Assembly: GCA_026388015.1 (NCBI GenBank)
Contig: JAPLKO010000053.1
Span: forward strand, 7,352-71,351
Reading direction: 5' to 3'
DNA from: Candidatus Firestoneibacteriota bacterium
GTDB lineage: Bacteria; Oederibacteriota; D2-FULL-39-29
DNA: 64,000 bases
Shown: piece by piece, positions 7,178 to 29,080 of the stretch
Layout of the letters: each line of letters begins with the position of its first letter
How positions within the stretch are numbered: the stretch's first letter is position 1
Position numbers and translations under genes: made by a program
Notes under the pieces: model-generated
The model's input: the letters and a program-made list of their open reading frames with translations, nothing else
Database searches by the model: none
Told to the model about the DNA's origin: nothing

Positions 7178-9739
7178 ATGGCAGGTAAAAAAAAGAAATT
7201 GTTTTTGATAGACGGTAACTCCTACCTCTATCGAAGCTACTATGCCATAAAAAATTTAAAGACTTCAAAAGGCGCGCCGACCAATGCAGTATTCGGGTTT
7301 GCGCGTCTTTTATTTAGAATACTTAAGGTGTACAAACCGGAGTATCTCGCCTTTACCTTTGACACTAAAGGACCTACTTTCCGCCACAAGGCCTATAAAG
7401 ATTATAAAATTCACAGAGAGCCTCCGCCCGAAGATCTGATAGCCCAGATGCCTGTAACAAAAGATCTTATAAAAGCTTTTAATATGCCCTCTTTTGAACT
7501 TCAGGGATATGAAGCCGACGATATAATAACCTATCTGGCAAGAAAAGGGGAGCAGGCGGGGTTAGAGGTGCTGATTTTAACCGGGGATAAAGATTTACTT
7601 CAGCTGGTTAATGAAAACATTAAAATTATGAGCGCAAACAAAGAGGATTATATTTATGATGCTGCAAAAGTAAAAGAAAAATACGGAATAGAACCGTTAC
7701 AGATGATAGATTTTCTGGCTCTGCTCGGGGATGCGAGTGATAACATACCCGGAGTGGACGGTATAGGGGAAAAGACGGCGTCCGAGCTTCTTAAAGAGTT
7801 TAAAGGTCTGAATGATATATATTCCAACATAGAAAAAGTAAAAAGCGACAAATTAAAGGAAAAATTGCTTAAAGGTAAGGAGTCGGCCTACTTTAGCAGA
7901 CAGCTGGCTACTCTCATTGAACCTCCTCTGGAGATAACCATAGAAGAGCTCGTTTCTAAAATTCCGGATGCCGCAGCTGTACTTGCAAAGCTGGGCGAAC
8001 TGGAGTTTGGCTCTATGCGGGAGGAGTTTAAGAAACTCGGTTTTTCACCGGTAGAAAGCGGGGAAGTAAACCTTTTTTCCGAAGAGAAGAAAGCTGAGTC
8101 AAATATTTTAGAAGTAACAGGTAAAGAGCAGACCGCTGAGGTGTACAAAGAGATTAAAAAATCCGGTAAAGCGGCCGTAAGTTTGCAGGACGGAAAGATT
8201 CTTTTTTCTTATGCCGCGGGTAAGGGGCACAGATTAGAGGTAAACAGAGGTTTAACGGATACTCTCCTTGCAGATAAGGAGCTCTCTCTTTCTTTCTTTG
8301 ATTACAAAGAGTTTCTTAAAGTTTATGACGGTGCAGTTACCAAGGGTGAGGTTTTTGACTGCCGGCTTGCGGCTTACCTGTTAAATCCGGACCGGGGCAG
8401 CTATATGCAGGGGGAGATAATATTCAGTTATCTGGCAAAAAATCCGGCGGAAAAAGAAGAAGTCTGTTTTCTGCTCGAACTTAAAGATGCGCTAAAAAAA
8501 GAGTTAAAGGAGCAGAAGCTTCTGGAGTTATTTGAAAAAATAGAGATGCCGTTAGTGCCGGTGCTTGCTTCTATGGAAAAGCACGGGATCAAACTGGACC
8601 TTCAACATCTAAAGAAACTCTCCGTAGAGCTCGGGAAAACACTGGAGGGGCTGATTAAAAACATCTACGGTCTGGCCGGGGAGGAGTTTAATATTAACTC
8701 TTCGCAGCAGCTCGGAAAAATATTATTTGAAAAACTTAAACTGCCGGTGGTAAAAAAGACGAAGACCGGTAACTCCACCGATGTAGAAGTTTTAGAAGAG
8801 CTTGCCGCAAAATCTCCTCTTCCCGCCTTTTTGCTGGAGTACAGACAGTTAACGAAACTTAAAAATACTTATATTGATTCTCTGCCGTTACTTGCCGACA
8901 AAGAGGATAAAGTTCATACGACGTTTGAGCAGACCGGCGCGGCAACCGGGAGACTCTCCAGTCTTAATCCTAATATTCAAAATATTCCCGTAAGAACGGA
9001 AGTCGGTAAAGAGATAAGAAGGGCTTTTACGGCTTCCGAAAAAGGCTGGAAGCTCATATCTGCGGACTACTCCCAGATAGAGCTGCGTATTCTCGCGCAT
9101 TTTTCAGGAGATAAAAATCTGATTGATGCTTTTGAAAAAGACGAAGATGTGCACAGCCGGACGGCGGCAGAGATATTTAAAATAAAAAAAGACGCCGTAA
9201 CCGGTGACGAAAGGCGCATTGCCAAAACAGTTAATTTTGGTATAATCTATGGCATCTCTGCATTCGGCCTGGCAAAACAACTGAAGATAAGCCGTACGGA
9301 AGCGCAAAAATATATAGACAGTTATCTCGAAAACTACCCGGGTGTTGATAGGTTTATGCAGGAGGCCAAAGAAAAGGCGAAGAAACAGGGCTTTATCGAG
9401 ACCCTCCTCGGAAGAAAGAGGTATATTCCGGATATTGAAAGTAAAAATAAGAATACCCGGGAGTTCGCCGAAAGAGTTGCTGTTAATGCGCCGATTCAGG
9501 GTTCGGCATCGGATATTATTAAAGTTGCAATGGTTAAACTTTACGGTATAATGCAAAAAGAGGTTAAGAAAGGGCGTCTTCTTCTGCAGGTGCATGATGA
9601 GCTTATTCTGGAGTGCCCGGAAAAAGATGTTGAGAGCCTTAAAAAGCTTGTAAAAGAAACGATGGAAGAAGTAATAAAACTGAAAGTACCGCTTAAAGTG
9701 GATGTTAACTCGGGGGATAACTGGCTTGAGTGCAAATAA
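7178..9739 (+). CDS. polA: DNA polymerase I
   Basis: 5'-3' exonuclease N-terminus. Polymerase motif B is RRIAKTVNFGIIYG and motif C is QVHDELILE. Length is 853 aa. Confidence 0.95.
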   Translation: MAGKKKKLFLIDGNSYLYRSYYAIKNLKTSKGAPTNAVFGFARLLFRILKVYKPEYLAFTFDTKGPTFRHKAYKDYKIHREPPPEDLIAQMPVTKDLIKAFNMPSFELQGYEADDIITYLARKGEQAGLEVLILTGDKDLLQLVNENIKIMSANKEDYIYDAAKVKEKYGIEPLQMIDFLALLGDASDNIPGVDGIGEKTASELLKEFKGLNDIYSNIEKVKSDKLKEKLLKGKESAYFSRQLATLIEPPLEITIEELVSKIPDAAAVLAKLGELEFGSMREEFKKLGFSPVESGEVNLFSEEKKAESNILEVTGKEQTAEVYKEIKKSGKAAVSLQDGKILFSYAAGKGHRLEVNRGLTDTLLADKELSLSFFDYKEFLKVYDGAVTKGEVFDCRLAAYLLNPDRGSYMQGEIIFSYLAKNPAEKEEVCFLLELKDALKKELKEQKLLELFEKIEMPLVPVLASMEKHGIKLDLQHLKKLSVELGKTLEGLIKNIYGLAGEEFNINSSQQLGKILFEKLKLPVVKKTKTGNSTDVEVLEELAAKSPLPAFLLEYRQLTKLKNTYIDSLPLLADKEDKVHTTFEQTGAATGRLSSLNPNIQNIPVRTEVGKEIRRAFTASEKGWKLISADYSQIELRILAHFSGDKNLIDAFEKDEDVHSRTAAEIFKIKKDAVTGDERRIAKTVNFGIIYGISAFGLAKQLKISRTEAQKYIDSYLENYPGVDRFMQEAKEKAKKQGFIETLLGRKRYIPDIESKNKNTREFAERVAVNAPIQGSASDIIKVAMVKLYGIMQKEVKKGRLLLQVHDELILECPEKDVESLKKLVKETMEEVIKLKVPLKVDVNSGDNWLECK

Positions 9740-10331
9740 AAATATCGTAATAGGTGTTACCGGCGGGGTGGCTACCGGAAAAAGTACGGTAGTACAGCTC
9801 CTAAGAAAAGATTTCAAATACTTGACAAGCGCCGATGAGAAAGCCCATCAGATAGTGAAACCGGGTAAACCGGCATATAAAAAAATAGTAAAAGCATTCG
9901 GCCGGGAAATTCTTGCCAAAGACGGCACCCTGGACAGAAAGCTTCTGGCAAAATGTATCTTTGCCTCTCCTGCAAAAAGAAAACGCCTTCAAAATATTAC
10001 GCATCCCGAAATCATTTCAGAGATGAAGAGGGATATAGCGAGATTTAAAAAGAGATCCACAATCGTTCTTTTTGAAGCGCCGCTTCTTTTTGAGGCCAAA
10101 ATGGAAAAGCTTGCGGATATAATTATAGTAGTTGCCTCCTCTGTAAAAAACCAGCTGAAAAGATTCGCAAAAAAAGGCCATACAAAAGCGGACACGTTAA
10201 GAAGAATAAAAAGCCAGATACCTTTAAAGACAAAGATAAAAAAAGCGGATATGGTGATTTATAATGACGGAAGCTTAAAAGAGCTGAAAAACTCCGTTAA
10301 GAACCTTGCGGTTATCTTAAAAGAACTTTAG
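9702..10331 (+). CDS. coaE: Dephospho-CoA kinase. The start could be the TTG at 9726; the ATG at 9702 overlaps the polA 3' end.
   Basis: P-loop GVTGGVATGKSTV. polA-coaE is a conserved gene pair. Confidence 0.9.
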   Translation: MLTRGITGLSANKNIVIGVTGGVATGKSTVVQLLRKDFKYLTSADEKAHQIVKPGKPAYKKIVKAFGREILAKDGTLDRKLLAKCIFASPAKRKRLQNITHPEIISEMKRDIARFKKRSTIVLFEAPLLFEAKMEKLADIIIVVASSVKNQLKRFAKKGHTKADTLRRIKSQIPLKTKIKKADMVIYNDGSLKELKNSVKNLAVILKEL

Positions 10332-10342
10332 AAGGAATAAAC

Positions 10343-10696
10343 ATGCCTGAACATTTTCAAACAGAAAGAAGCGCTTTAATAATTAAGCCTTTAGCCCCGT
10401 ACTGGGAGTGGGCAAACTCCATAGAAGACGGTATTCCGCCGGAACAAAAAGGTTTTAACGGTACGGAAAAAGACCATACTGTTTATCTTATCCCGGTTTC
10501 CTCGCCCGAGATGATGGAGAAACACGTAAAAGAACTCTTTCCCAAAATATTTGAAGAGGAATTAAAAGCCTGGTGGACCAACGAAAACGACTGGCCAAAA
10601 AACCGCACCTATAAGATGTTTAAAAAATGGTTTGAAGTAAGTTTCGCGCACGCGGTGTATGATAAGGTAGAACAGTCCGCAGAAATAAAGAATTAA
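10343..10696 (+). CDS. Hypothetical protein (117 aa)
   Basis: Intact ORF preceded by an RBS. No family recognised. Confidence 0.4.
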   Translation: MPEHFQTERSALIIKPLAPYWEWANSIEDGIPPEQKGFNGTEKDHTVYLIPVSSPEMMEKHVKELFPKIFEEELKAWWTNENDWPKNRTYKMFKKWFEVSFAHAVYDKVEQSAEIKN

Positions 10697-14293: not shown

Positions 14294-14881
14294 ATGGAAA
14301 AAACAATTGTTCTTGCCTCAACCTCCCCGAGAAGAAAAGAACTGCTAAAAAGAATGGGGTTAAGGTTTAAAGTTAGACCTGCAAATATTGAAGAAAATCC
14401 CGGCAGAACATTTTTGCGAAAAGCTCTTATGCGAGTTGCTCTGGAAAAAGCGGCAGCGGTAGCAAAACAGCAAAAGAAAGGTTTAATAATATCCGCGGAT
14501 ACGGTTGTTGTGTTTAAAGGGATTGTATACGGAAAGCCGGGAACTGTAAAGAAAGCAGTGAAAATGCTTTCAACTCTGAGCGGTGTTACGCAGAGCGTCT
14601 GGACTGCGGTTGCCATAATTGATAAATATTCGGAAAAAACAATGATTCGAACTGCTGTCTCTAAAATAAAAATGAAACATCTGTCAGAAACTGAAATACA
14701 ATATCTTTCCCGGAAAAATCTTGATAAGGCAGGCGGCTACGGAATACAGGAGGATGATAAGTTTCTCACTGTTTTAAACGGTTCGCGAACAAACATTGTA
14801 GGTTTACCGACAGAGTTATTATCCAAAATGCTGAAAAGTTTTGGCATATCTGCAAATGGAATTACAAAGTATAGATTTTAA
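14294..14881 (+). CDS. maf: Maf-like nucleoside triphosphate pyrophosphatase (septum formation protein)
   Basis: N-terminal LASTSPRRKELL signature. Length is 195 aa. Confidence 0.9.
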   Translation: MEKTIVLASTSPRRKELLKRMGLRFKVRPANIEENPGRTFLRKALMRVALEKAAAVAKQQKKGLIISADTVVVFKGIVYGKPGTVKKAVKMLSTLSGVTQSVWTAVAIIDKYSEKTMIRTAVSKIKMKHLSETEIQYLSRKNLDKAGGYGIQEDDKFLTVLNGSRTNIVGLPTELLSKMLKSFGISANGITKYRF

Positions 14882-15309: not shown

Positions 15310-17154
15310 ATGAAAATAGATAGATATAAAAGATTGCCAGAGCTTGACCCTTTCAAACTTTCAAGAGAAAAATATACGCTTCTGTTTGAAACAGGTTACG
15401 CTGATAAAGCCAACAGAAAAAGTTATTTGTTCTCAAGACCGCATTATGTTATAAGGGCCTATGACCATACCGGACTGATAAGAGCCTTTCGAAAAATAGA
15501 GGAATACTCCAAAAAGTATTATCTTGCGGGTTATCTTGCTTACGAAGCCGGCTATTATTTTGAAGAAGATATATTTTTGCCTGAAAAAACAAGTAAAACC
15601 CCCCTGTTGGAGTTCTTTGTGTACAAAAAAGCCGCCTATTTTGATCATATTTCCGGAAAAAGCAAAAACTTGCGGCAGTTTCTTTTAACCAAAAGTAAAA
15701 AAATTGAAAATGTCTGTTCTGTAGAAAAACCGCAGATCGGCATAAATTACGGTTCCTACAAAAAGCAAATAAACCGGATCAAGAATTATATTAGAAAAGG
15801 CGATACCTATCAGGTGAATTTTACGGACAAAATACATTTCAAGTTTAAAGGAAACAGTTATGACCTATATAATGAACTCAAAAATAAGCAGAGAGTCTCT
15901 TACGGGGCATACCTAAATCTTGACCAAAGCAAAATACTGTCACTTTCTCCCGAGCTTTATTTTAGTCTGAAAGACGGTGTTTTGACAGCGAAACCTATGA
16001 AGGGTACGATTGACCGGGGAAAAGATATTTTTGAAGACAGGAAAAGAATTAGAGAGCTAAAATACAGCATCAAAAACCGGGCCGAGAATATAATGATTGT
16101 TGATATGATAAGGAACGATCTGGGTAGAATCTGCATCAATGGCTCGGTAAAAACCTCAAAAATATTTGAAGTTGAAAAATATAATACGCTCTTTCAGCTT
16201 GTAACTACGGTGTGCGGCAAACTTTTTCCGGGTACATCTTATTACGATATATTTAAGAGTATTTTTCCCGGAGGTTCTATAACGGGCGCTCCAAAGATCA
16301 GAACTATGGAAATAATACGTATGCTTGAAAAGAATAAAAGACGGATATATTGCGGGGCGCTTGGCATAATTTTCCCCGGGAAGAAGAGGGCTGTATTTAA
16401 TATTCCCATAAGAACGGTCCAAATAGAGCGCAGCTGCGGAGAAATGGGCATAGGCGGGGGCATTGTTTGGGATTCTTCACCGAAAAGCGAATATCAGGAA
16501 GCTCTTTTAAAGTCAAAATTTCTAACGGTAAAGCCGGCAGAGTTTTGTTTGCTCGAAACCATACTTTGGAAAAATAAATACTTCTTACTTGCCGGACACT
16601 TATCAAGACTCAAAGCTTCGGCCGAATATTTTTCTTTTCCATTGGCGCTTGATAAAATAAAGAAAAAACTTAAGGAAAAAGAAAATAGGTTTGAGAAACA
16701 TCTTGCTTACAAAATACGTCTGTTTGTTTCAAAAACCGGAGCAGTTAATCTCGAGGCGGCTGTAATACAAAAGGAAAATACCGCAAAAAAAATACTGATA
16801 TCCTCGATACGCGTAAACAGCAAGGACCCGTATTTATACCATAAAACAACAAAAAGATCGTTATATGATACAGAGAGAGGGCGATATGTCAAAGGAGACA
16901 TACTGGATGTTTTGTTCCTAAACGAAAACAAAGAAATAACAGAAGGCGCAATATCAAACATATTTATTGCAAAGAATGGACGATCTTATACCCCGCCGGT
17001 ATCTTCCGGACTTCTTCCGGGTGTTTACAGGTCTTATTATATAAAGAAGACAGCTGCCCTGGAAAAACCGCTGTTTCTAGATGATCTCAAAACGGCTGAT
17101 AAAATAATATTAACTAATTCGGTCAGGGGCGCAAGTCTAGTGACTCTCGTCTGA
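15310..17154 (+). CDS. pabBC: Aminodeoxychorismate synthase component I fused to aminodeoxychorismate lyase (PabB-PabC fusion)
   Basis: N-terminal half is a chorismate-binding enzyme (GDTYQVNFT, PELYF, GAPK). C-terminal half has the class IV aminotransferase/ADC-lyase fold. Length is 614 aa. Confidence 0.8.
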   Translation: MKIDRYKRLPELDPFKLSREKYTLLFETGYADKANRKSYLFSRPHYVIRAYDHTGLIRAFRKIEEYSKKYYLAGYLAYEAGYYFEEDIFLPEKTSKTPLLEFFVYKKAAYFDHISGKSKNLRQFLLTKSKKIENVCSVEKPQIGINYGSYKKQINRIKNYIRKGDTYQVNFTDKIHFKFKGNSYDLYNELKNKQRVSYGAYLNLDQSKILSLSPELYFSLKDGVLTAKPMKGTIDRGKDIFEDRKRIRELKYSIKNRAENIMIVDMIRNDLGRICINGSVKTSKIFEVEKYNTLFQLVTTVCGKLFPGTSYYDIFKSIFPGGSITGAPKIRTMEIIRMLEKNKRRIYCGALGIIFPGKKRAVFNIPIRTVQIERSCGEMGIGGGIVWDSSPKSEYQEALLKSKFLTVKPAEFCLLETILWKNKYFLLAGHLSRLKASAEYFSFPLALDKIKKKLKEKENRFEKHLAYKIRLFVSKTGAVNLEAAVIQKENTAKKILISSIRVNSKDPYLYHKTTKRSLYDTERGRYVKGDILDVLFLNENKEITEGAISNIFIAKNGRSYTPPVSSGLLPGVYRSYYIKKTAALEKPLFLDDLKTADKIILTNSVRGASLVTLV

Positions 17155-17164
17155 GCGCTCATAA

Positions 17165-17180
17165 TGTGAAGATAATCACA
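17165..17180 (+). promoter_or_regulatory. Rex operator 1: TGTGA-AGATAA-TCACA, a perfect palindrome
   Basis: Matches the Rex consensus TTGTGAnnnnnnTCACAA. It lies about 130 nt upstream of the hndA-like gene. Confidence 0.7.
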
Positions 17181-17246
17181 ATATAGCTCTTGTTTTACGC
17201 ATGTATCTGCTATTGCAGTAAACATTTAGTCATAAACAGATTTATA

Positions 17247-17275
17247 TTGACATTAATATAGCAATTTATTATAAT
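17247..17275 (+). promoter_or_regulatory. Consensus sigma70 promoter: TTGACA, 17-nt spacer, TATAAT
   Basis: Perfect hexamers and spacing read directly. The -10 abuts and overlaps Rex operator 2. Confidence 0.75.
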
Positions 17276-17292
17276 TGTGACATAAATCACAA
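17275..17292 (+). promoter_or_regulatory. Rex operator 2: TTGTGA-CATAAA-TCACAA, perfect 18-bp consensus
   Basis: Exact match to the Rex box consensus. It overlaps the -10/+1 region, a classic repressor position. It shares the 13-mer AATCACAATATAG with operator 1. Confidence 0.8.
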
Positions 17293-17308
17293 TATAGAGG
17301 GAGAATTT

Positions 17309-17788
17309 ATGGTAAAAAAAGATAAGCTGCAGGCAGATTTGGAAGGGCTTGTCAAAAAGTGGAAGGACAAGAAAGGCAACCTGATAATGATTCTTCATAG
17401 CATTGAAAACATTTACGGGTATGTTCCTAGGGATACGTCCATAAAATTGTCCAGACTTCTTGATGTGCCTTTGGCAAGAATCTATGAAGTGATTACTTTT
17501 TATAATTATTTTAAGTTAGAGCCTCCCGCAAAACACAATGTTGCCGTTTGTATGGGGACCGCATGCTACCTGAAAAATGCAGCATCGCTAATAGAGGAAA
17601 TCGAAAAGATCCTTCACATTAAAGAAGGTCAAAGCACTAAGGATGGGATGTTTCATCTGGATGTTGTGAGATGCCTTGGCTGCTGCGGCTTGGCTCCCGT
17701 AATGATGATAGACGAAAAAGTCTACGGAAAGGTTAAGAAGAGCGAGATTGTGGATATTTTATCCAAGTACGTGAAGGAAGAGGAATAG
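17309..17788 (+). CDS. hndA: [FeFe]-hydrogenase diaphorase subunit, NuoE-like [2Fe-2S] protein (HndA/HydC-like)
   Basis: CMGTACYLKN...VRCLGCCGLAPV thioredoxin-like [2Fe-2S] motif. Confidence 0.85.
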   Translation: MVKKDKLQADLEGLVKKWKDKKGNLIMILHSIENIYGYVPRDTSIKLSRLLDVPLARIYEVITFYNYFKLEPPAKHNVAVCMGTACYLKNAASLIEEIEKILHIKEGQSTKDGMFHLDVVRCLGCCGLAPVMMIDEKVYGKVKKSEIVDILSKYVKEEE

Positions 17789-18151: not shown

Positions 18152-19894
18152 ATGGAAAAGAAAATAATATATATAAGAGATACGGACTCCGCCCAGAAGG
18201 AACGCATTAATGACTACTTTACACTCTTCTCAAATGAACTGAGAGACGCAAATCTTCTGGAGCAGGTCCAGCTTGTGAAAGTAGCAGATATCGGCTTGTA
18301 TGAAAAAGGCGTTGCGGTTAAGATTATACCGGAAAACATTGTTTATAGCGGAATAAAAACCACTGATGTTAAAGAAATAGTGGAAGAAACAATTAGGGGT
18401 GGCAAAATAATCAAGGATTTGCTTTGCGGAAAAAAATCAAAACAACTGAGAGCGGTTCTTAAAAACTGCGGGTATATAGACCCGGAAAGCCTGGAAGATT
18501 ATATTGCTGCAGGCGGCTACAAGGCTCTGGTTAAAGTTCTTACGGAGATGAAGCCGGAAGCAGTGGTGGAAGAGCTTAAAAAAAGCGGACTTCGCGGCAG
18601 AGGCGGCGCCGGCTACCCCACCTGGATGAAATGGAATTTTGCCCGGGGAATGAATTCTCCGGAAAAATATGTTATCTGCAACGGCGACGAAGGAGATCCC
18701 GGCGCGTATATGGACAGGAGCGTACTTGAAGGAGATCCTCATTCCGTTTTGGAAGGTATGATAATAGCCGGCTACACCATCGGTTCTACAAAAGGGTACT
18801 TCTATATTAGAGCAGAGTATCCTCTTGCCGTGGAAAGGGTTCAGAAAGCGATAGATCAGGCGACTTCTGCAGGACTTCTGGGCAATAATATTCTGGGGAG
18901 TAACTTTAATTTTGAGCTCGAGATAAGACTGGGAGCGGGCGCCTTTGTCTGCGGTGAAGAAACATCTCTGATTGCTTCAATAGAAGGTAAGCGGGGGACT
19001 CCGCATCCCAGGCCGCCCTATCCTTCGGTTAAGGGTCTTTGGGGAAAACCAACAATCATTAATAATGTAGAGACCCTGGCTAATATACCATTGTTAATTG
19101 CCGGCGGCGGAACAAAATTTGCCTCAGTCGGAACAGAAAAAAGTAAGGGCACAAAAGTATTTGCGCTTACGGGAAAAGTAAAAAACTCGGGTTTGGTTGA
19201 AGTTCCCATGGGTATAACTCTACGTGAGATTGTTTATGACATCGGGGGCGGAATAATTAATAATCGCGACATTAAGGCGATTCAGACCGGCGGTCCCTCC
19301 GGCGGGGTCATTCCTCAGGAGTTTCTGGATACTCCAGTAGACTACGAAAACCTCGGCAAACTCGGCTCCATCATGGGCTCCGGCGGCATGATAGCAATAG
19401 ATGATACCGATTGCTTGGTAGATCTGGCAAAGTTCTATCTTGAATTTTGCGTTGACGAATCCTGCGGTAAGTGCGCGCCCTGCCGTCTCGGAGGCTACCA
19501 GCTTCTTCAAATACTTAAAAAAATATCCGGCGGTAACGGAGAACTTGAAGACTTAAACAGGCTAAAGAAAATTTCCTACGCTATGCAAAAAGCTTCGCTT
19601 TGCGGTTTGGGTCAATCAGCTTCCAATCCGGTATTCTCAACAATAAGATACTTTGAGGAAGAATACAAAAGGCACATTGTTGATAAAAAATGCCCGGCCG
19701 GAAAGTGTAAAGCGCTTATTAGTTTTAAGGTAATTTCTGAAAAGTGCAAGAAGTGCGGGCTTTGTATGAAAAACTGTCCGGCAAATGCTATTACGGGAAG
19801 CCGCGAAGCCGGCTATATTGTTGATTCGCAAAAATGTATCAAATGCGGTGTTTGTTTTGATGTCTGCAAGTTTAAAGCCGTGATGAAGGAGTAG
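18152..19894 (+). CDS. hndC: NuoF-like NAD(P)H-binding FMN/[4Fe-4S] subunit with a C-terminal 2x[4Fe-4S] ferredoxin domain (HndC/HydB-like)
   Basis: [12 protein letters not shown] (FMN/NADH site), a CGKCAPC cluster motif, and C-terminal [12 protein letters not shown]...[11 protein letters not shown]. Confidence 0.9.
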
Positions 19895-19899
19895 GATAA

Positions 19900-21651
19900 A
19901 TGTATAAAATGATAGAAGCTAAAATTAACGGTATCACCGTGGAAGTCAAAGAAGGGACGACAGTCATGGAGGCGGCCAAAAAAGTCCAGATTAAAATACC
20001 GACACTTTGCAAGCACCCGGACCTTCCGCCTTCCGCCGCCTGCGGTCTTTGTATCGTAAAGGTGAAAGGTTCCAATAAAATGCTTCGCGCCTGTTGTACT
20101 CCGCTTGAAGACAAGATGGAGATAACCACAAATGATCCGGATATTGTAGAGGTAAGAAAAACTGTTTTAGAGCTGATAATCTCGAATCATCCTAATGACT
20201 GTTTGAAATGCGGTCGTAACGGTAATTGCGAGCTTCAGAGTATGGCGGCAGATTTTGGTATTCGCGAAGATGTTTTTGGAAAGTTCCTCCGGGATATTCC
20301 TATAGATTCATCAACCGGTACTGTTGTTCTCGAGCCTTCAAAATGCATTCTTTGCGGACGCTGTATAGAAGTCTGTCAGAATATGCAGGATGTTTGGGCT
20401 CTCTCTTTTCTTGAGAGAGGACTTGATACCAGAATTTCCCCGGCCGGAGATATTAAACTTTCTGAATCTCCCTGTGTTAAGTGCGGCCAATGCTCAGCAC
20501 ATTGTCCTACCGGCGCAATATTTGAAAAAGATGATACACAGCTGGTCTGGGATGCGCTTAAGAATCAGGATAAATATTGTGTAATTCAGATAGCTCCCGC
20601 AGTCAGGGTGGCCATAGGCGAGGCGTTTGGTGCTACAGGCAAGAACCTTACAAAAAAGCTTTATGCTCTATTCAGAAGAATGGGATTTAAGGCGGTTTTT
20701 GATACCAACTTCGGTGCTGATGTTACAATTATGGAAGAAGCAAGCGAATTTGTAGAACGCTTTGTTCATAAAAAAAGCGAACTGCCTTTGATTACTTCCT
20801 GCTGTCCGGCGTGGGTTGACTTTATGGAAAAGTTTCATTCCGACATGATAAATCATTTCTCCACCTGCAAATCCCCGCACGAAATTGTTGGTACACTTTC
20901 TAAAACTTATTATGCGGAGAAGGCGGGGGTTGATCCGTCTAAGATTTATATGGCGTCTGTAATGCCCTGCACGGCAAAAAAATATGAGATTACCAGATCC
21001 GATGAGATGTTTGCTTCAGGTTATCAGGATATAGATGTTGCCATTACAACGCGCGAACTTGCGCGCATGATAAAACAGGCGGGAATAGATTTTATGAATC
21101 TGCCTGACGAAGAAGCGGACAGTTTGCTCGGTGATTATACCGGTGCAGGTGTTATCTTCGGCGCGACCGGCGGCGTTATGGAAGCAGCTCTTAGGACGGC
21201 GTACAATCTTGTTACAAAAAAAGAACTGGAAGATGTCAATTTTGTAAACACAAGAGGACTGGAGTTCATAAAGGAAGCAGAAATAGACATAGAAGGGACA
21301 AAAGTCAAGATTGCCGTTGCGCACGGACTTTCACATGTCGAAGAAGTTTTGGAAAGAGTGAGACAGGCAAAGAAGGAAGGAAAAGAAGTTCCTTATCACT
21401 TTATTGAGGTAATGGCTTGCCCCGGCGGTTGTGTCGGCGGCGGCGGTCAGCCCTATAATGTAACGGACAGTCTAAGATTAAAAAGAGCTTCTGCAATCTA
21501 CCAGGATGATAAAGAAAAAACAGTGCGCTGTTCGCATAATAATGTATATGTAAAAAAACTGTATAAAGATTTCCTGGGAAAACCACTCGGGGAGAAATCT
21601 CATAAGCTTTGTCACACCGAGTATAAGGCAAGACCGATTTACGTAAGATAA
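19900..21651 (+). CDS. hndD: [FeFe]-hydrogenase catalytic subunit, group A bifurcating/NAD(P)-linked type (HndD/HydA-like)
   Basis: H-cluster motifs TSCCPAWV, MPCTAKKYE and EVMACPGGCVGGGGQP. N-terminal [2Fe-2S] and [4Fe-4S] ferredoxin domains. Confidence 0.92.
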   Translation: MYKMIEAKINGITVEVKEGTTVMEAAKKVQIKIPTLCKHPDLPPSAACGLCIVKVKGSNKMLRACCTPLEDKMEITTNDPDIVEVRKTVLELIISNHPNDCLKCGRNGNCELQSMAADFGIREDVFGKFLRDIPIDSSTGTVVLEPSKCILCGRCIEVCQNMQDVWALSFLERGLDTRISPAGDIKLSESPCVKCGQCSAHCPTGAIFEKDDTQLVWDALKNQDKYCVIQIAPAVRVAIGEAFGATGKNLTKKLYALFRRMGFKAVFDTNFGADVTIMEEASEFVERFVHKKSELPLITSCCPAWVDFMEKFHSDMINHFSTCKSPHEIVGTLSKTYYAEKAGVDPSKIYMASVMPCTAKKYEITRSDEMFASGYQDIDVAITTRELARMIKQAGIDFMNLPDEEADSLLGDYTGAGVIFGATGGVMEAALRTAYNLVTKKELEDVNFVNTRGLEFIKEAEIDIEGTKVKIAVAHGLSHVEEVLERVRQAKKEGKEVPYHFIEVMACPGGCVGGGGQPYNVTDSLRLKRASAIYQDDKEKTVRCSHNNVYVKKLYKDFLGKPLGEKSHKLCHTEYKARPIYVR

Positions 21652-21655
21652 TAAA

Positions 21656-21704
21656 AAGGGCAAATTTATCGTGAATAATAGTGCACATAATTTGCCCTTT
21701 TTTG
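21656..21704 (+). terminator. Rho-independent terminator: 11-bp stem AAGGGCAAATT/AATTTGCCCTT with a large loop, then TTTTTTG
   Basis: Read directly after the hndD stop. Confidence 0.65.
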
Positions 21705-21871
21705 TTTATAGTGATAGAGTGACTATATATTGTGATACGACGCGCGCAACCATATAGTAAGTATTATTCTGTAATGCTTATTTTGGTTTGACAAATGCAG
21801 ATAAAACACCAAAAATACAATAATATTGACAGGTAAAAACAAATCCTATATAATGTGAAAGGTGGTACAAT

Positions 21872-22522
21872 ATGTCGGAATCTAAGAATTGTATATTAAG
21901 GCTTTGCAGATACAGACGGACCTTGAAAGATCTTAAAGAACTGGGATATGTGAAGATCTTTTCGGATAATCTCGGAGAAGCAACCGGTGTTACCGCCGCC
22001 CAGGTAAGGAAGGATTTTTCGCTCTTCGGTATTTCCGGAAATAAAAAGGGCGGCTATCTGATTGATAACCTTATCGAGAAGATAAATTCAATACTCGGCA
22101 AAGATGAAGTGCAGAAAGTTATCATGGTGGGTGCCGGAAATCTTGGCAGCGCTCTTGCCCGGTACCGAGGTTTTGAAAAAGAGGATATTGATATAGTTGC
22201 CGCGTTTGATGCCGATCCGGCCAAACAGGGTAAAATAAACAATATTCAGGTTTATCCGATAAAGGATGTTTTTGAATATGTCAGAAACAACAAGGTGCGA
22301 GTGGCTGTTCTTGCGGTTCCTGCAACAGTGGCTCAGGAAGTAAGCGAGATCCTTGTGTCCGCGGGAATAAAAGGAATTCTAAATTTTGCGCCGGTTACTT
22401 TGCGGGTGCCGGAAAGGATGGTAATAAATAACGTCAGTCTGGCTATAGAGCTGGAGAACGTTATCTACTATGTTAATGCTAGAGCGCGCGGCGAAAAACA
22501 AAAAAACGAGATTAACCCTTAA
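21872..22522 (+). CDS. rex: Redox-sensing transcriptional repressor Rex
   Basis: N-terminal winged helix (RLCRYRRTLKDLKELGYVKIFSDNLGEATGVTAAQVRKD) and a Rossmann fold VIMVGAGNLGSAL. A TTGACA-17-TATAAT promoter sits at about 21827-21855. Confidence 0.9.
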   Translation: MSESKNCILRLCRYRRTLKDLKELGYVKIFSDNLGEATGVTAAQVRKDFSLFGISGNKKGGYLIDNLIEKINSILGKDEVQKVIMVGAGNLGSALARYRGFEKEDIDIVAAFDADPAKQGKINNIQVYPIKDVFEYVRNNKVRVAVLAVPATVAQEVSEILVSAGIKGILNFAPVTLRVPERMVINNVSLAIELENVIYYVNARARGEKQKNEINP

Positions 22523-22642: not shown

Positions 22643-25600
22643 ATGAACAGTCCGCTTGAAAAAGTAAAGGTACTGAAACAAAAAGCAATAAAGAGCAACA
22701 TTCCTAAATGGAACGCCGATATTCGGTTTAGTATTGGTATGTCCACCTGCGAAATAGCCGCAGGTTCAAAAAAAGTTTTAGCCGCCCTGCAGGAAGAGAT
22801 AAAGAAGAGAAAGCTTAAGGGTGTGTGTATAACGGAAAAAGGCTGCGCAGGCAGGTGTCATGTTGAACCTACGCTAGAAGTATTTGTTCCGGGAAGAAAA
22901 CCCGCAGAGTTTGAGAATGTCGATGAAAAGAAAGTAAAAAGGATTCTAGCGGAGTATGCTTACAAAAAAGTAAAGAGAAACAATAAAGTACTTCCTGCGC
23001 CTGCGGATTTTGGACATGAGTTTCTGACCGATCGTTCCGCCTATATTTTTGGAGATCTGGTAGAGTTCTCAAAACAAAAAAGAATGGCGCTAAGAAATTG
23101 CGGAGCGATAGATCCGGAATCAATCGATGATTATCTTTGTGTAAGAGGTTATGAAGCACTTGGAAAGGTGCTGACGGCTTACAAACCGGAGATGGTTGTA
23201 GAAGATATTATAAAATCAGGGCTCCGGGGTCGAGGGGGTGGGGGCTTTAAGACCGGCACAAAATGGGGCTTTGTTGCCGCACAGAATAATACTGTAAAAT
23301 ATGTTATCTGTAACGCCGACGAGGGTGATCCGGGCGCATTTATGGACCGGAGTATGATAGAGGGAGATCCGTTTAGCTTGTTAGAGGCTATGGCCATAGG
23401 CGGGTATGCGGTCGGGTCCAATGCGGGAATAGTTTATATACGCGCGGAATATCCTTTGGCAGTAAAGAGATTAAAAATTGCTATTGAAATCGCTAAGAAA
23501 AAGAACCTTCTCGGGAAAAATATTCTTGGAAGTGATTTTACCTTTGACGTAGATATCGTGCTTGGGGCAGGCGCTTTTGTTTGCGGTGAGGAAACAGCTC
23601 TTATCAATTCTATAGAAGGAAAGCGCGGAATGCCTATAACGAGACCGCCCTATCCTTCTGTAAAAGGTCTCTGGGGCCGTCCGACGCTTATTAACAATGT
23701 AGAAACCTGGGCAAATATTCCGTTAATCATACTTGACGGATGGGAATTTTTCTCTTCTGTCGGCACGGATAAATCGAGAGGAACCAAAGTATTTGCGCTT
23801 GCCGGAAAGATTAAGAACACCGGACTCGTGGAAGTTCCTATGGGTACGACTCTCGGAGAGGTTATCTTTGATATCGGCGGGGGCACTAAAACTGACGCAA
23901 AATTCAAAGCTGCGCAGACCGGCGGGCCTTCGGGAGGTTGTCTTCCCACCCAGTTTCTTAACACTCCTATAGATTATGATTCTCTTATCTCAGCAGGCTC
24001 TATTATGGGTTCCGGCGGACTTATTATTATGGATGAAAAAGATTGCATGGTGGATGTTGCAAAGTTCTTCCTGGAGTTTACCCAAGATGAGTCCTGCGGT
24101 AAGTGTACACCCTGCAGAGAAGGAACCAAAAGAATGCTCGAGATACTCGAAAGGATCACCGGCGGAAAAGGCGAAGAAGGCGATATAGAAAAACTTGAAA
24201 GACTCGGGAACAGCATAAAAAAAACTGCTTTATGCGGACTGGGGCAGACAGCGCCGAATCCGGTGCTTTCCACGATTAAATATTTTAGAAATGAGTATGA
24301 ATCCCACATAAGGGACAGAAAATGTAAATCCGCAGTTTGCGGCGAACTCTTTGTGTCGCCCTGTCAGCATACCTGTCCGGTAAACATAGATATTCCCGGC
24401 TTCATAGGAAATATCAGAGAAGACAGATTGAAGGACAGTATTGAATTGATCCTAAAAAGAAATCCTTTGCCTTCTGTTTGCGGCCGGGTTTGTCATCATC
24501 CGTGCGAAACAAACTGCAGAAGAGGGAAGATGGAAGAGCCTATCTCCATTATGATGTTGAAAAGATTTGCAGCGGATTACACTGCCGGAGATAAAGGTAT
24601 TGCGATAGAAAAATATAAGGGTAAAACCTTGAAGGCTTCCGTTGCAATAATCGGAAGCGGTCCGGCGGGTCTTTCTGCGGCGTATCACCTGGCAAAAAGA
24701 GGTTATCAGGTTACAGTTTATGAATCTGAAAAAGTAGCCGGCGGCATGCTTACTTTGGGTATTCCGGAGTACAGGTTGCCCAAAGATATAGTAGACCGGG
24801 ATATTAAACGTCTCATAAGCGCTGGTGTAAAAATAAAAACCGGCGTGCATTTTGGAAAGGATATATCTCTGAAAGATCTAAAGGATAAAGGCTTCCAGGC
24901 CGTCTTCCTTGCCATCGGTGCCTGGAAAGAAGTACCGCTTAAAATTCACGGTACGGATCTCTTTGGATTTATGGGTTCTCTTTCTTTCCTTAAAAACTAC
25001 AACACCGAAAAGATTGTGAAGATTAAAGGTGTCTACTCCATAGTAATAGACGAAGAACATAATATGCCGGTAACGGGCCAAAGGGTCGCAGTCATCGGAG
25101 GCGGAAATGCCGCTATGGATGTGGCGAGAACTTGTCTCCGTCTCGGTGCTTCCGAAGTTCATGTTGTATATAGAAGAGACCGCGCGGATATGCCAGCAAT
25201 TCCCGAGGAAGTTCACGAGTGTGAAAAAGAGGGCGCAAAACTGCATTTCCTTCTGATACCTAATAATATTAAAGGCAAATTCGGTAAGATTCAGGAGCTT
25301 GAATGCCTTCATACAAAACCGGGAGAGTTCGATGCTACCGGAAGAAGAAAACCGGTTCCTACGGAAGAGAAATTTGTTCTGCCCGTGGATATTATCATAA
25401 GCGCCATCGGCGGCAAACCCAACTGCGCCGAGCTTTCCAAGGATAAACTTATTATGACGGATTGGGATACGGTCTCTGTTGATAAAAGGACTCTGGCTAC
25501 GAATATCCCGTGGGTTTTTGCCGGAGGGGACGTTGTTACCGGAGGCGGTACGGTTATAGAGTCTGTGGCAGACGGTGAAAAGGCGGCAATTTCCATCGAT

Positions 25601-25849
25601 AGGTACCTTCAGGGAAAAAGAGGCGATGAACTTTTCAGAGACCGTTTTGTGGTTAAAGGGGAAAGAAAAGTCGTTTCGTATATTGATCCTGCAAAAGAAG
25701 TAAAAGAAAAAGCGAGAATAAAGCATGCTAAGCTCACTATGGAAAAACGTTTGCAGGCTTTCACAGAAGTAGAACTCGGCTATACAAAGAGCCAGGCTAT
25801 GGAAGAGTGTGACCGCTGCTTACGCTGCGATAAAAAGGAGGTTGAATAA
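22643..25849 (+). CDS. 1068-aa three-module fusion: HndB-like [2Fe-2S] domain, then NuoF-like FMN/NAD(H) module, then GltD/NfnB-like FAD/NAD(P)H module
   Basis: N-terminus GMSTCEIAAGSKKV. Middle GLRGRGGGGFKTG plus CGKCTPC. C-terminus has a GltD Fe-S region (CQHTCPVNIDIP...CHHPCETNC) and two dinucleotide folds (AIIGSGPAGLSAAY and VAVIGGGNAAMDVA). Confidence 0.85.
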   Translation: MNSPLEKVKVLKQKAIKSNIPKWNADIRFSIGMSTCEIAAGSKKVLAALQEEIKKRKLKGVCITEKGCAGRCHVEPTLEVFVPGRKPAEFENVDEKKVKRILAEYAYKKVKRNNKVLPAPADFGHEFLTDRSAYIFGDLVEFSKQKRMALRNCGAIDPESIDDYLCVRGYEALGKVLTAYKPEMVVEDIIKSGLRGRGGGGFKTGTKWGFVAAQNNTVKYVICNADEGDPGAFMDRSMIEGDPFSLLEAMAIGGYAVGSNAGIVYIRAEYPLAVKRLKIAIEIAKKKNLLGKNILGSDFTFDVDIVLGAGAFVCGEETALINSIEGKRGMPITRPPYPSVKGLWGRPTLINNVETWANIPLIILDGWEFFSSVGTDKSRGTKVFALAGKIKNTGLVEVPMGTTLGEVIFDIGGGTKTDAKFKAAQTGGPSGGCLPTQFLNTPIDYDSLISAGSIMGSGGLIIMDEKDCMVDVAKFFLEFTQDESCGKCTPCREGTKRMLEILERITGGKGEEGDIEKLERLGNSIKKTALCGLGQTAPNPVLSTIKYFRNEYESHIRDRKCKSAVCGELFVSPCQHTCPVNIDIPGFIGNIREDRLKDSIELILKRNPLPSVCGRVCHHPCETNCRRGKMEEPISIMMLKRFAADYTAGDKGIAIEKYKGKTLKASVAIIGSGPAGLSAAYHLAKRGYQVTVYESEKVAGGMLTLGIPEYRLPKDIVDRDIKRLISAGVKIKTGVHFGKDISLKDLKDKGFQAVFLAIGAWKEVPLKIHGTDLFGFMGSLSFLKNYNTEKIVKIKGVYSIVIDEEHNMPVTGQRVAVIGGGNAAMDVARTCLRLGASEVHVVYRRDRADMPAIPEEVHECEKEGAKLHFLLIPNNIKGKFGKIQELECLHTKPGEFDATGRRKPVPTEEKFVLPVDIIISAIGGKPNCAELSKDKLIMTDWDTVSVDKRTLATNIPWVFAGGDVVTGGGTVIESVADGEKAAISIDRYLQGKRGDELFRDRFVVKGERKVVSYIDPAKEVKEKARIKHAKLTMEKRLQAFTEVELGYTKSQAMEECDRCLRCDKKEVE

Positions 25850-25850
25850 C

Positions 25851-27638
25851 ATGGAAAAGAAAATGATTAACCTCATAATTGACGGAATAGCGGTTAAAGT
25901 ATCTGAAGATTCAACGGTTATGCAGGCTGCGGATTCGGTCGGTATTCATATTCCGAGACTTTGTTACCATCCGAGACTTTCAAGTGTCGGCGCCTGCCGG
26001 GTGTGCGTTGTTGAAGTAGACGGCGCAAAAAACTTTCCGGCATCCTGTGTTACCGCGGTATTTGAAGGGATGAAAGTAAAAACAAATACTCCCGCCATAA
26101 GGGAAGCAAGAAGGGATGTTGTTGAGTTAATCTTGGATAATCATCCGAAGGAATGTCAAATCTGCGAGCGGAACAACAATTGCGAACTGCAGCAGCTCGC
26201 AACCACCCTCGGGGTGGAGGATTATTTTTACGCCGGCGAAAGAAAACAGTTCCCGATAGACAGCTCTTCTTGTTCTATCGTGAGAGACCCTGATAAGTGT
26301 ATCCTTTGCGGAAAATGCGTAAGGGTTTGTTCCGAGATTCAGGGCGTCAATGCGCTTTCCATATCTGCGAGAGGCTATAAAACCAATGTAGGTCCCGCTT
26401 ATAATATGGATATGAAAGACAGCGTTTGCATTAACTGCGGACAGTGTACGCTGGTTTGTCCCACCGCAGCGCTTACGGAAAAAGACGGCATTAAGGAAAC
26501 GTTTAAAAATCTGAGTAATCCGGATAAAGTATGTATAGTTCAGATTGCCCCGGCGGTAAGAGTTGCAGTCGGCGAGGCGTTTGGTTTTGCTCCCGGTACG
26601 GATAAAACATACGAGATGGTGACAGCTCTCAGAATGATGGGTTTTAAAGTTGTTTTCGACACCCAGTTCTCGGCGGACCTTACCATAATAGAAGAAGGTC
26701 ACGAGTTCATAAAAAGACTTACAACAGGCGGAAAACTTCCGATGTTCACCTCCTGTTCTCCGGGGTGGATCAAGTATCTGGAAACGTTCCATCCTGAGTT
26801 TATTGAAAATGTGTCTACCTGCAAATCACCGCAACAGATGATGGGTGCGTTAATAAAGACTTTCTATGCAAAAAAAGTCGGAATTGATCCCGCAAAGATT
26901 TTCTCTGTTTCCATAATGCCTTGCACGGCAAAAAAATATGAGTGTGCAAGGCCGGAGATGAATTCGAGCGGCTTTAGAGATGTTGACGTAGTGCTCACGA
27001 CCAGAGAACTTGCGAAGATGATAAAACAAGCCGGAATAAAATTCACGGAATTGAAGAAGGGTGAGTTCGATGAACCCCTGGGTGAATCAACGGGTGCTGC
27101 TCCTATCTTTGGCGTTACCGGCGGAGTAATGGAAGCGGCCCTGCGTACTGCGTATGAAGTTATAACAAAAAAAGAGCTCCCTTCTATTGATTTTAAAGAT
27201 GTCAGAGGCTTAAACGGCATCAGGGAAGCGATAGTGGATGTGGCCGGCACTAAAGTAAGCGTTGCCGTGGTAAACGGTCTGGCGAATGTGCACAAGCTCC
27301 TGACGGAAATAAAAGAAGGAAAACGTAAATATCACTTTGTGGAAGTTATGACTTGCCCCGGAGGTTGTATCGGCGGCGGCGGGCAGATCTATCCTCAGGG
27401 AGATATTGAAGCGATGGATAAAAATCTTTACACTCAGCGGTCCGACGGGCTTTATGATATTGATGAAAAGAAAAAGCTCCGAAAGTCTCACGAGAATCCG
27501 CATATAACGGCTGTCTATAAAGAATTTTTACAGAAACCGCTTGGAGAGCTTTCACACAAATTACTTCATACGCATTATCACAAGGCCTGCCCGAAAGGCG
27601 TGCCGTCGGAAGTCAGAGATACCGTGAGCATCGGTTAA
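25851..27638 (+). CDS. Second [FeFe]-hydrogenase catalytic subunit, paralog of hndD. The start is at the internal ATG 25851; the ORF track starts at 25809, overlapping the upstream gene.
   Basis: H-cluster motifs TSCSPGWIKY, MPCTAKKYE and EVMTCPGGCIGGGGQ. A GGAGG RBS lies before 25851. Confidence 0.9.
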   Translation: MEKKMINLIIDGIAVKVSEDSTVMQAADSVGIHIPRLCYHPRLSSVGACRVCVVEVDGAKNFPASCVTAVFEGMKVKTNTPAIREARRDVVELILDNHPKECQICERNNNCELQQLATTLGVEDYFYAGERKQFPIDSSSCSIVRDPDKCILCGKCVRVCSEIQGVNALSISARGYKTNVGPAYNMDMKDSVCINCGQCTLVCPTAALTEKDGIKETFKNLSNPDKVCIVQIAPAVRVAVGEAFGFAPGTDKTYEMVTALRMMGFKVVFDTQFSADLTIIEEGHEFIKRLTTGGKLPMFTSCSPGWIKYLETFHPEFIENVSTCKSPQQMMGALIKTFYAKKVGIDPAKIFSVSIMPCTAKKYECARPEMNSSGFRDVDVVLTTRELAKMIKQAGIKFTELKKGEFDEPLGESTGAAPIFGVTGGVMEAALRTAYEVITKKELPSIDFKDVRGLNGIREAIVDVAGTKVSVAVVNGLANVHKLLTEIKEGKRKYHFVEVMTCPGGCIGGGGQIYPQGDIEAMDKNLYTQRSDGLYDIDEKKKLRKSHENPHITAVYKEFLQKPLGELSHKLLHTHYHKACPKGVPSEVRDTVSIG

Positions 27639-27653
27639 AGGAGGAAATAAAAA

Positions 27654-28184
27654 ATGAATACGTGTACCTGCGCTCCTGAATTAAAAGAAAAAGAAAAACA
27701 AGACGGTTTAAAAGAATTAAAAGATTTTATAAAAACCGGTAAACAGCTCCACGATAAACAGGGTGCGTTAATGAACGTGCTCCATAAGGTTCAGGAGATA
27801 TTCGGCTACATACCGAGAGAAGCTATGGATGTGGTCTCGGAAGAACTCTGTGTCCCTACAGCTCATATTTATGGGATGGCGACGTTCTATAACTTCTTCT
27901 CGCTTAAACCCAAAGCCAAGTACCAGATTTATGTCTGTAAAGGTACAGCCTGCTATGTGGCCGGGGGAGCCAGGCTTCTGGAACGTATCGAAGACGAGCT
28001 TAAGATAAAGCTTGGCGATGTTACTCCCGATGGGCTATTTGGCCTTGCTATTACAAGGTGTCTCGGCTGCTGCGGTCTTTCTCCCGTAGTTCAGGTAAAT
28101 GATGAAGTGTTTGTAAGACTTGTTCCGGAAAAGATCCCCGGTATTCTGGATAAGTTCAGAAAAATGGAAAAGAAAACGAAATAG
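27654..28184 (+). CDS. NuoE-like [2Fe-2S] subunit of the second hydrogenase complex
   Basis: CKGTACYVAGG...TRCLGCCGLSPV. Confidence 0.85.
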   Translation: MNTCTCAPELKEKEKQDGLKELKDFIKTGKQLHDKQGALMNVLHKVQEIFGYIPREAMDVVSEELCVPTAHIYGMATFYNFFSLKPKAKYQIYVCKGTACYVAGGARLLERIEDELKIKLGDVTPDGLFGLAITRCLGCCGLSPVVQVNDEVFVRLVPEKIPGILDKFRKMEKKTK

Positions 28185-28303: not shown

Positions 28304-29080
28304 TTGAAAAACCGTTTGATAAGCATATATAATATAGTAATGAAGATGAATTTATCTGTAACCGAGAAAAAAATATACAAAAGGCAGATAATGCTTTTTG
28401 GAGAGAAAGGGCAGAAAAACCTTAAAAAATCAACTGTTTTTATAGTTGGTGCCGGAGGCCTTGGAAGCGCTGCTGCTTTTTACCTTGCCGGGGGCGGAGT
28501 CGGGAGAATCATAATTGTTGACTCCGATAAAGTGGAGCTTTCAAATCTCAACCGGCAGATACTGCATGGATTTAGAAGGGTAGGAAAAAACAAAGCGCTC
28601 TCGGCGCAAACTACACTTCGAGCCTTAAACGGTAATATTAAAATTGAGTCTGTCACAGAAAGAATAACGGCTGCAAATATTGATAAATACGCAGGCAAGG
28701 CGGATCTCCTTCTTGATTGTCTGGATAATTTTGAGACGAGGTTTGTACTTAACGAATACGCATTTAAAAATAAAAAGCCTCTTATTTTTGGAGCCATCTT
28801 CGGGTATTTTGGTCAAATTGCCTTTATAAGACCCGGAAAAAGTTTTTGTCTGGCTTGTCTCTTTGAAGGTTCACCGGCAAAAGGAGTTTTTCCGGTAGTA
28901 GGCGCAACCCCAGGTGTTATCGGTTCGCTTCAAGCTATGGAAGCGATAAAATATCTTTCGGGTGCCGGCAGTAATCTGAACAGCGAGCTTTTGACGTGGA
29001 ACGGGTTGAAGCAGGAGTTCCGTAAGGTAAAATTTAAAAGAAATTCACACTGCAAAGTATGCAGGAAGGAAAAAAAATGA
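28304..29080 (+). CDS. ThiF/MoeB/HesA-family E1-like adenylyltransferase. The true start is possibly the Met at about 28340-28346.
   Basis: Nucleotide-binding loop VFIVGAGGLGSAAAFYLAGGGVGRIIIVD. C-terminal CLAC...CKVC zinc motif. Confidence 0.8.
   Translation: MKNRLISIYNIVMKMNLSVTEKKIYKRQIMLFGEKGQKNLKKSTVFIVGAGGLGSAAAFYLAGGGVGRIIIVDSDKVELSNLNRQILHGFRRVGKNKALSAQTTLRALNGNIKIESVTERITAANIDKYAGKADLLLDCLDNFETRFVLNEYAFKNKKPLIFGAIFGYFGQIAFIRPGKSFCLACLFEGSPAKGVFPVVGATPGVIGSLQAMEAIKYLSGAGSNLNSELLTWNGLKQEFRKVKFKRNSHCKVCRKEKK

Follow-up and report, generated by a model that had tools for sequence, protein, structure and literature searches.

Probable Rex operators in the promoter region of a HydABC-type [FeFe] hydrogenase operon in Candidatus Firestoneibacteriota

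The locus described here lies in a window of 64,000 nucleotides (64 kb) of DNA from Candidatus Firestoneibacteriota, and the coordinates of its features are collected in Table 1. A gene for a PabB/PabC fusion protein is followed by a first hydrogenase operon, which codes for a NuoE-type [2Fe-2S] subunit, a small thioredoxin-like [2Fe-2S] protein, a NuoF-type FMN/NADH-binding subunit and the catalytic subunit HydA1; then come rex and a second hydrogenase operon, composed of a NuoF-GltD fusion, HydA2 and a NuoE-like subunit. Both HydA proteins pass the NCBIfam model NF040763 (“NADH-dependent [FeFe] hydrogenase”), HydA2 with 877.4 bits. HydA contains the domains PF02906, PF02256, PF13510 and PF10588, i.e., the H-cluster domain plus a NuoG-like N-terminus, and is encoded in one operon with a NuoF-like (PF01512, PF10589) and a NuoE-like (PF01257) protein, which is the composition of HydABC-type enzymes. 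Judged by these predicted subunits, operon 1 encodes a HydABC-type, NADH-linked [FeFe] hydrogenase. The enzyme is probably electron-bifurcating, a property that we infer from the subunit composition alone.

Operon 1 ends in a predicted intrinsic terminator, whose loop exceeds the length permitted in the pattern scan and which the scan therefore missed. This long loop carries CGTGAATAATAGTGCACA, and xGTGAA...GT(A/G)CA-like strings are found at the equivalent place in three related loci (L001, L002, and L003); these strings may reflect either a degenerate Rex-like element or mere conservation of the loop. As for operon 2, the NuoF-GltD fusion (1068 aa) joins an FMN/NADH module to a FAD/NAD(P) module similar to the small subunit of glutamate synthase, and this suggests a different nucleotide specificity of hydrogenase 2. 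The longest hydA2 ORF has its GTG start at position 25809 and shares 41 nts with the gene before it; thus, the real start is probably further downstream. Neither a Rex box nor a conserved promoter was found ahead of operon 2 in the 120-nt spacer that follows rex, and transcription from the rex promoter may extend into the operon. Directly after operon 2 there are a ThiF-family gene and a radical-SAM/BATS gene (ThiH- or HydG-like), at positions 28304–30444, while selA and selB, which code for selenocysteine machinery, are located further downstream (43832–47247).

Table 1. Position, strand and basis of the features found at the hydrogenase/rex locus (window coordinates).
Feature	Position	Strand	Basis and remarks
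PabB/PabC fusion	15310–17154		Pfam/NCBIfam scans; upstream of the control region
Distal Rex-type operator, TGTGA-AGATAA-TCACA	17165–17180	.	Direct read, pattern search; PWM 23.7 bits
−35 hexamer, TTGACA	17247–17252	+	Promoter scan; TTG invariant in 8 lineages
−10 hexamer, TATAAT	17270–17275	+	Direct read and promoter scan; TATA invariant in 8 lineages
Proximal Rex operator, TTGTGA-CATAAA-TCACAA	17275–17292 (core 17276–17291)	.	Direct read; predicted from sequence
Ribosome binding site (RBS), GAGGGAG	17297–17303	+	Direct read; 5 nt before the ATG at 17309
hydC-like, NuoE-type [2Fe-2S] subunit, first gene of operon 1	17309–17788	+	PF01257, E = 6.8e-46
Small thioredoxin-like [2Fe-2S] protein, 114 aa	17792–18136	+	PF01257, E = 3.2e-06
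hydB-like, NuoF-type FMN/NADH-binding subunit	18152–19894	+	PF01512, PF10589; TIGR01959-like
hydA1, [FeFe] hydrogenase catalytic subunit	19900–21651	+	PF02906; NF040763, 791.8 bits (cut-off 765)
Intrinsic terminator of operon 1, stem GGGCAAATT/AATTTGCCC then T-run	21658–21706	+	Read by eye
rex promoter, perfect TTGACA-17-TATAAT	21826–21854	+	Promoter scan, pattern search
Degenerate box, TGTGA-AAGGTG-GTACA	21854–21869	.	Abuts the rex −10 hexamer; PWM 10.9 bits
rex, redox-sensing repressor	21872–22522	+	PF06971, PF02629; NF003996
Hydrogenase operon 2 (NuoF-GltD fusion 22643–25849, hydA2 ORF 25809–27638, NuoE-like 27654–28184)	22643–28184	+	

The product of the rex gene was compared with protein family models and with solved Rex structures. 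It scores 232.5 bits against the NCBIfam equivalog NF003996 (cut-off 138), and NF003995 and NF003994 are likewise above their cut-offs. An N-terminal winged helix (PF06971; E = 4.5e-13, 49.5 bits, cut-off 27) and a C-terminal Rossmann-fold NAD(H)-binding domain (PF02629; E = 1.3e-19) were both recognized; residues 87–92 read GAGNLG, a GxGxxG motif aligned with the GAGNLG/GVGNLG of solved Rex proteins, and the match to the solved Rex of T. ethanolicus has an E-value of 6e-40. A gap-free alignment was obtained between the N-terminal domain and that of T. thermophilus Rex (T-Rex), and the recognition helix Q44-V45-R46-K47-D48 (QVRKD) is identical in the two proteins. The match with T. maritima Rex covers stretches of equal length (query 9–77, chain 11–79), giving an offset of +2, and by this offset in the matching coordinates R46 and K47 correspond to Arg48 and Lys49 of the T. 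maritima protein. These two T. maritima residues read the G and the G/A of TTGTGA (PMC8836258). On the evidence of these matches, the gene encodes a bona fide Rex; it is located between the two hydrogenase operons, 4.58 kb downstream of the operator region, in agreement with the distance of about 4.5 kb given in the initial annotation.

The intergenic region ahead of operon 1 contains two palindromes with the core TGTGA-N6-TCACA. Direct reading of the DNA bore out the positions first assigned to them, 17165–17180 for the distal and 17275–17292 for the proximal one. Within the 64 kb window the core occurs exactly twice, at 17165–17180 and 17276–17291; the number of perfect cores expected by chance is 0.01, two or more were present in 0 of 100 shuffles, and no extra site appeared in the window when one mismatch was allowed. 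The Rex consensus of the literature is TTGTGAA-N4-TTCACAA (as quoted in PMC6391272 and PMC5317091), and each site agrees with it at 12 of the 14 specified positions. The deviations concern the inner A/T positions, which read TGTGAa...aTCACA in the distal and TGTGAc...aTCACA in the proximal site; in addition, the distal 18-mer is ATGTGA...TCACAA, with A in place of the outer T. Therefore, the claim that both sites are perfect Rex boxes is correct for the 5+5 core, not for the whole 18-bp box.

A position weight matrix (PWM) derived from related loci has mostly A/T at the inner position, as in the Rex motif, and general AT-rich flanks around the boxes (TTWW-TGTGA...TCACA-WWAA). With the PWM built from the other loci, the proximal and the distal site obtain the same score of 23.7 bits, while the maxima in shuffled sequence range from 6.7 to 20.3 bits. 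This search yielded no other Rex target in the window: the next matches, at 57545, 14221 and 43793, are within the shuffle range, and those checked among the next-best matches adjoin unrelated genes (an M48 peptidase gene and selA). The spacing between the half-sites was controlled in 1.86 Mb of related loci, which contain 47 perfect boxes with N6 vs. 0 to 2 with each of the spacers N2–N5 and N7–N10.

The proximal palindrome is fused to the promoter of operon 1. As the initial annotation had it, this promoter consists of a perfect TTGACA and a perfect TATAAT separated by 17 nts (12/12 in the promoter scan), and the T at 17275 both closes the −10 hexamer and opens the proximal 18-mer. A pattern search for TTGACA-17-TATAAT returned two perfect matches in the 64 kb window, this promoter and that of rex. 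The proximal operator with its promoter is found 33 nts upstream of the HydABC-type operon. Transcription is predicted to start 6–8 nts after the −10 hexamer, i.e., near 17282, and relative to this predicted start the operator would extend from about −7 to +11, so that it overlaps and follows the promoter elements. In Caldicellulosiruptor, Rex represses a bifurcating [FeFe] hydrogenase from sites that overlap the promoter or lie downstream of it (PMC8579813), and the position of the proximal operator fits repression by occlusion as shown for that genus. The region was also inspected for RNA elements. The Rfam search of the region gave no match at E ≤ 1, and the predicted 5′ UTR has no stable fold and contains one half-site only; thus, an explanation at the RNA level is unlikely.

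The rex gene has a promoter of its own, and the degenerate box that abuts the −10 hexamer of this promoter preserves the left half-site alone, since its right half overlaps the RBS. At most, this box is a weak autoregulatory site. Autoregulation of rex through it is unsupported: a single half-site is intact, the RBS takes the place of the other, and the score with the PWM falls inside the shuffle maxima. The promoter-box sequence is conserved in L001, L002, L003 and L084, a conservation that the RBS can explain. In a more distant Firestonebacteria-like lineage, palindromes with a 5-nt spacer are present upstream of rex (TGTGA-AAGTA-TCACA in L088, at about 10440–10465, and TGTGA-AAAAG-GCACA in L004, at about 14455–14480), and these do not fit the N6 geometry. 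Unlike many Rex systems, neither rex nor operon 2 has a convincing operator.

The closest genomes are metagenome-assembled genomes (MAGs) labelled Candidatus Firestonebacteria, with HydC proteins 90–92% identical and Rex proteins up to 96% identical to those of the window, and these Firestonebacteria relatives retain the order hydC-(2Fe2S)-hydB-hydA-rex-nuoF/gltD of the genes. Scans of genomes and metagenomes supplied eight distinct Firestonebacteria-like variants of the region upstream of hydC, which were aligned for footprinting. In all eight lineages the TTG of the −35 hexamer, the TATA of the −10 hexamer, the five bases of TGTGA and the five bases of TCACA are invariant. On the other hand, the N6 of the operator is different in every lineage (CATAAA, TACAAA, AAAGCG, AAATCG, AAAGTA, TATAAA, TTAAAG, and TGAAAG) and the 17-nt promoter spacer drifts as well. 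Invariant half-sites combined with drifting spacers are what one would expect if a palindrome bound by a protein is joined to a promoter.

The distal site has a more uneven distribution. It begins 10 nts past the stop codon of the pabB/pabC fusion gene and its centre lies approximately 110 bp upstream of the predicted start, too far for occlusion, so that it does not share the placement for repression predicted for the proximal site. Perfect copies are present in the window, L001, L003 and L086; L084 deviates by one mismatch, L002 has a degenerate version, and the L004/L088 lineage, which is also without pabBC upstream, lacks the site. In L001, the distal palindrome (9854–9883) extends to 12 bp per arm (CGTATTATGTGA / TCACATAATACG). 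Most likely, the distal site would bind a second Rex dimer, which would raise the local occupancy or block the read-through from the upstream gene; it may serve as an auxiliary operator or as a roadblock. A DNA loop joining the two operators is unsupported, since the distal-proximal spacing is 109–111 bp in five lineages (10.4–10.6 helical turns) and 93 bp in L003 (8.9 turns), with no consistent phasing.

The initial annotation had also drawn attention to an ATATAG extension that follows both operators and creates a shared 13-mer. The 13-mer, AATCACAATATAG, is indeed present at both 17174–17186 and 17285–17297. The extension is found exactly at the proximal site of L001 and as ATATAA in L086, and it is not conserved in L002, L003, L084, L004 and L088, nor at the distal sites. 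As it is not conserved beyond the closest relatives and fits only the general AT-rich flank, ATATAG or the 13-mer was rejected as a functional element.

The association between the box and rex was then considered across phyla, counting as a box any match with no more than one mismatch. Retrieval by HydC similarity provided 80 genome loci, 39 of which have rex near hydC. In these 39 loci, the density of boxes is 2.66 per kb in the 300 nts upstream of hydC or rex vs. 0.02 per kb elsewhere. With the Firestonebacteria-like loci left out, a box is present upstream of hydC or rex in 28 of the 35 genome loci that have rex vs. 2 of the 39 that do not; the corresponding counts for the metagenome loci are 18/18 and 5/45. 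Fisher's test gives about 1e-11 for each of the two sets, a significance overstated by the fact that the loci are related and the two sets possibly overlap, and the same optimism affects the values for the hydC upstream region alone (p = 4e-4 for the genomes, 2e-3 for the metagenomes). The effect is nevertheless very large. In the Fibrobacter-like loci L016–L019 (at about 9739–9965), rex is divergent from hydC and three near-perfect boxes lie in the shared 340-nt intergenic region, a multi-operator layout that may regulate both directions.

These data can be set against other explanations of the two palindromes. TGTGA-N6-TCACA is also the classical E. coli CRP consensus, a 5+6+5 core bound by an activator of the cAMP-receptor family, and the palindromes of the window could accordingly be operators of a CRP/FNR-family regulator instead of Rex. 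The identity of the core speaks for this possibility, as does the fact that the inner positions in the window depart from the Rex-specific TGTGAA/TTCACA. However, the box tracks the adjacency of rex across phyla and is often placed directly upstream of rex; the inner position is mostly A/T across the loci, as in the Rex motif; and the A-TCACAA half-site recurs in the experimentally validated Rex operator of T. maritima, so that the missing inner T is no objection to Rex. Moreover, nothing ties a CRP protein to these loci, whereas the linkage to rex is strong: tblastn searches with E. coli CRP and FNR found no homologue either in the window (best E-value 0.15) or in the 80 genome loci (best E-value 0.019), although a regulator gene in another part of the genome would have escaped this weak test. 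Altogether, we regard a CRP/FNR-type operator as very improbable.

For the distal palindrome, a further explanation is that it forms the tip of a weak terminator or 3′-end hairpin of the pabB/pabC gene. This would account for its start 10 nts after the stop codon and for its absence where pabBC is not the upstream gene, and the RNA from 17153 to 17191 can form an extended, imperfect hairpin of −10.9 kcal/mol, after which comes UUGUUUUA. Yet the fold is no better than that of shuffled sequences (z = −0.85, with 35 of 200 shuffles folding as well), the terminator scan lists nothing at this position, A and U predominate in the stem, and the short T-run is not conserved. Between lineages, it is precisely TGTGA-N6-TCACA that persists while the spacer drifts, as for an operator, and the PWM built from other loci scores the distal palindrome as high as the proximal one. 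A hairpin origin is thus unlikely, if somewhat less so than CRP/FNR control. Finally, short palindromes are many in AT-rich spacers, and both sites might be chance matches in intergenic DNA of this kind; the two sites found against 0.01 expected, the half-sites invariant at every position in eight lineages and the specificity of the boxes for N6 effectively refute this explanation. The assignment of the boxes to Rex, already proposed in the initial annotation, is supported by the same invariance in eight lineages, by the co-occurrence with rex and by the N6 specificity; the point to be kept in mind is that the core is common to the CRP family.

Taken together, the region 17155–17308 is very probably the Rex-operator/promoter control region of the HydABC-type hydrogenase operon and would constitute an NADH-responsive switch. 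Rex binding, the response to NADH, the direction of repression and the transcription start are proposed here by analogy with the established behaviour of the Rex family, in which Rex binds DNA in its NAD+-bound state and is released upon binding of NADH (PMC8836258). If the ratio of NADH to NAD+ is low, a Rex dimer on 17275–17292 would block RNA polymerase at the sigma-70-type promoter, preventing open-complex formation or promoter escape. As NADH rises, Rex would leave the DNA and the hydrogenase would be made; the enzyme could then dispose of surplus reducing equivalents as H2, reoxidising NADH. The whole locus might also be conceived as a two-tier hydrogen valve. Hydrogenase 1 would be kept tightly off by two high-affinity operators, the distal one, located just past an upstream gene that has no terminator, serving as an insulator or roadblock against read-through and not as a classical operator, and hydrogenase 2, possibly NADPH-linked, would be co-transcribed with rex from the equally strong promoter with its half-site, being either constitutive or weakly modulated by Rex. 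We consider this extended scheme speculative and rather doubtful.

Bifurcating hydrogenases under Rex control are already known from Caldicellulosiruptor and Thermotoga, with a further, inferred case in Caldithrix. The locus is therefore a well-supported but ordinary case, a clean instance of a known redox switch in a little-studied phylum and no new kind of system, and it leaves the understanding of Rex itself unchanged. What it adds is the extension of the NADH/NAD+-responsive Rex-hydrogenase switch to Firestonebacteria and, through the related loci, to MAGs labelled as Fibrobacterota, Omnitrophota, Elusimicrobia and Planctomycetota, all of them groups in which the switch has had no experimental genetics. 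The predicted operators could be used for annotating regulons in uncultured anaerobes and for predicting when such organisms release H2 in sediments and aquifers; furthermore, the region offers a compact, strong, redox-gated promoter/operator cassette.

The best described counterpart is that of Caldicellulosiruptor bescii and C. saccharolyticus (PMC6391272, PMC8579813), in which an NADH-sensing Rex, a palindromic operator overlapping or following the promoter of a HydABC-type operon and a rex gene in the hydrogenase neighbourhood are likewise found. These organisms are Firmicutes and their system was validated by EMSA, rex deletion and mapped starts, whereas the present case belongs to an uncultured candidate phylum and is known from sequence alone; the window adds the distal second operator and, downstream of rex, a second hydrogenase operon with the NuoF-GltD fusion. 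In Caldithrix abyssi (Cabys_3675–3679; PMC5317091), rex was also linked by bioinformatic inference, outside the Firmicutes, to a [FeFe] hydrogenase of the bifurcating type and to a TGTGAA-N4-TTCACA box. There, however, rex heads the operon, with a single box 38 bp upstream of it, while in the window rex comes after the regulated operon, with its own promoter devoid of a convincing box, and two boxes are at the hydrogenase promoter. Thermotoga maritima Rex was crystallised on the operator TTGAGA-AATTTA-TCACAA (PMC8836258), which shares the 6+6+6 layout and the A-TCACAA half-site with the window's sites, and the base-reading pair Arg48/Lys49 is conserved as R46/K47; according to Ravcheev et al. 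2012, as cited in PMC8836258, the regulon of this protein includes hydrogen production. T. maritima belongs to another phylum, and the sites of the window are better palindromes than this TM0201 operator. Lastly, the Rex operators of Streptomyces coelicolor and Staphylococcus aureus, TTGTGAA-W4-TTCACAA (PMC2883068), share the core and the logic of repression with those of the window and differ from them at the inner A/T positions, where they read TGTGAA...TTCACA.
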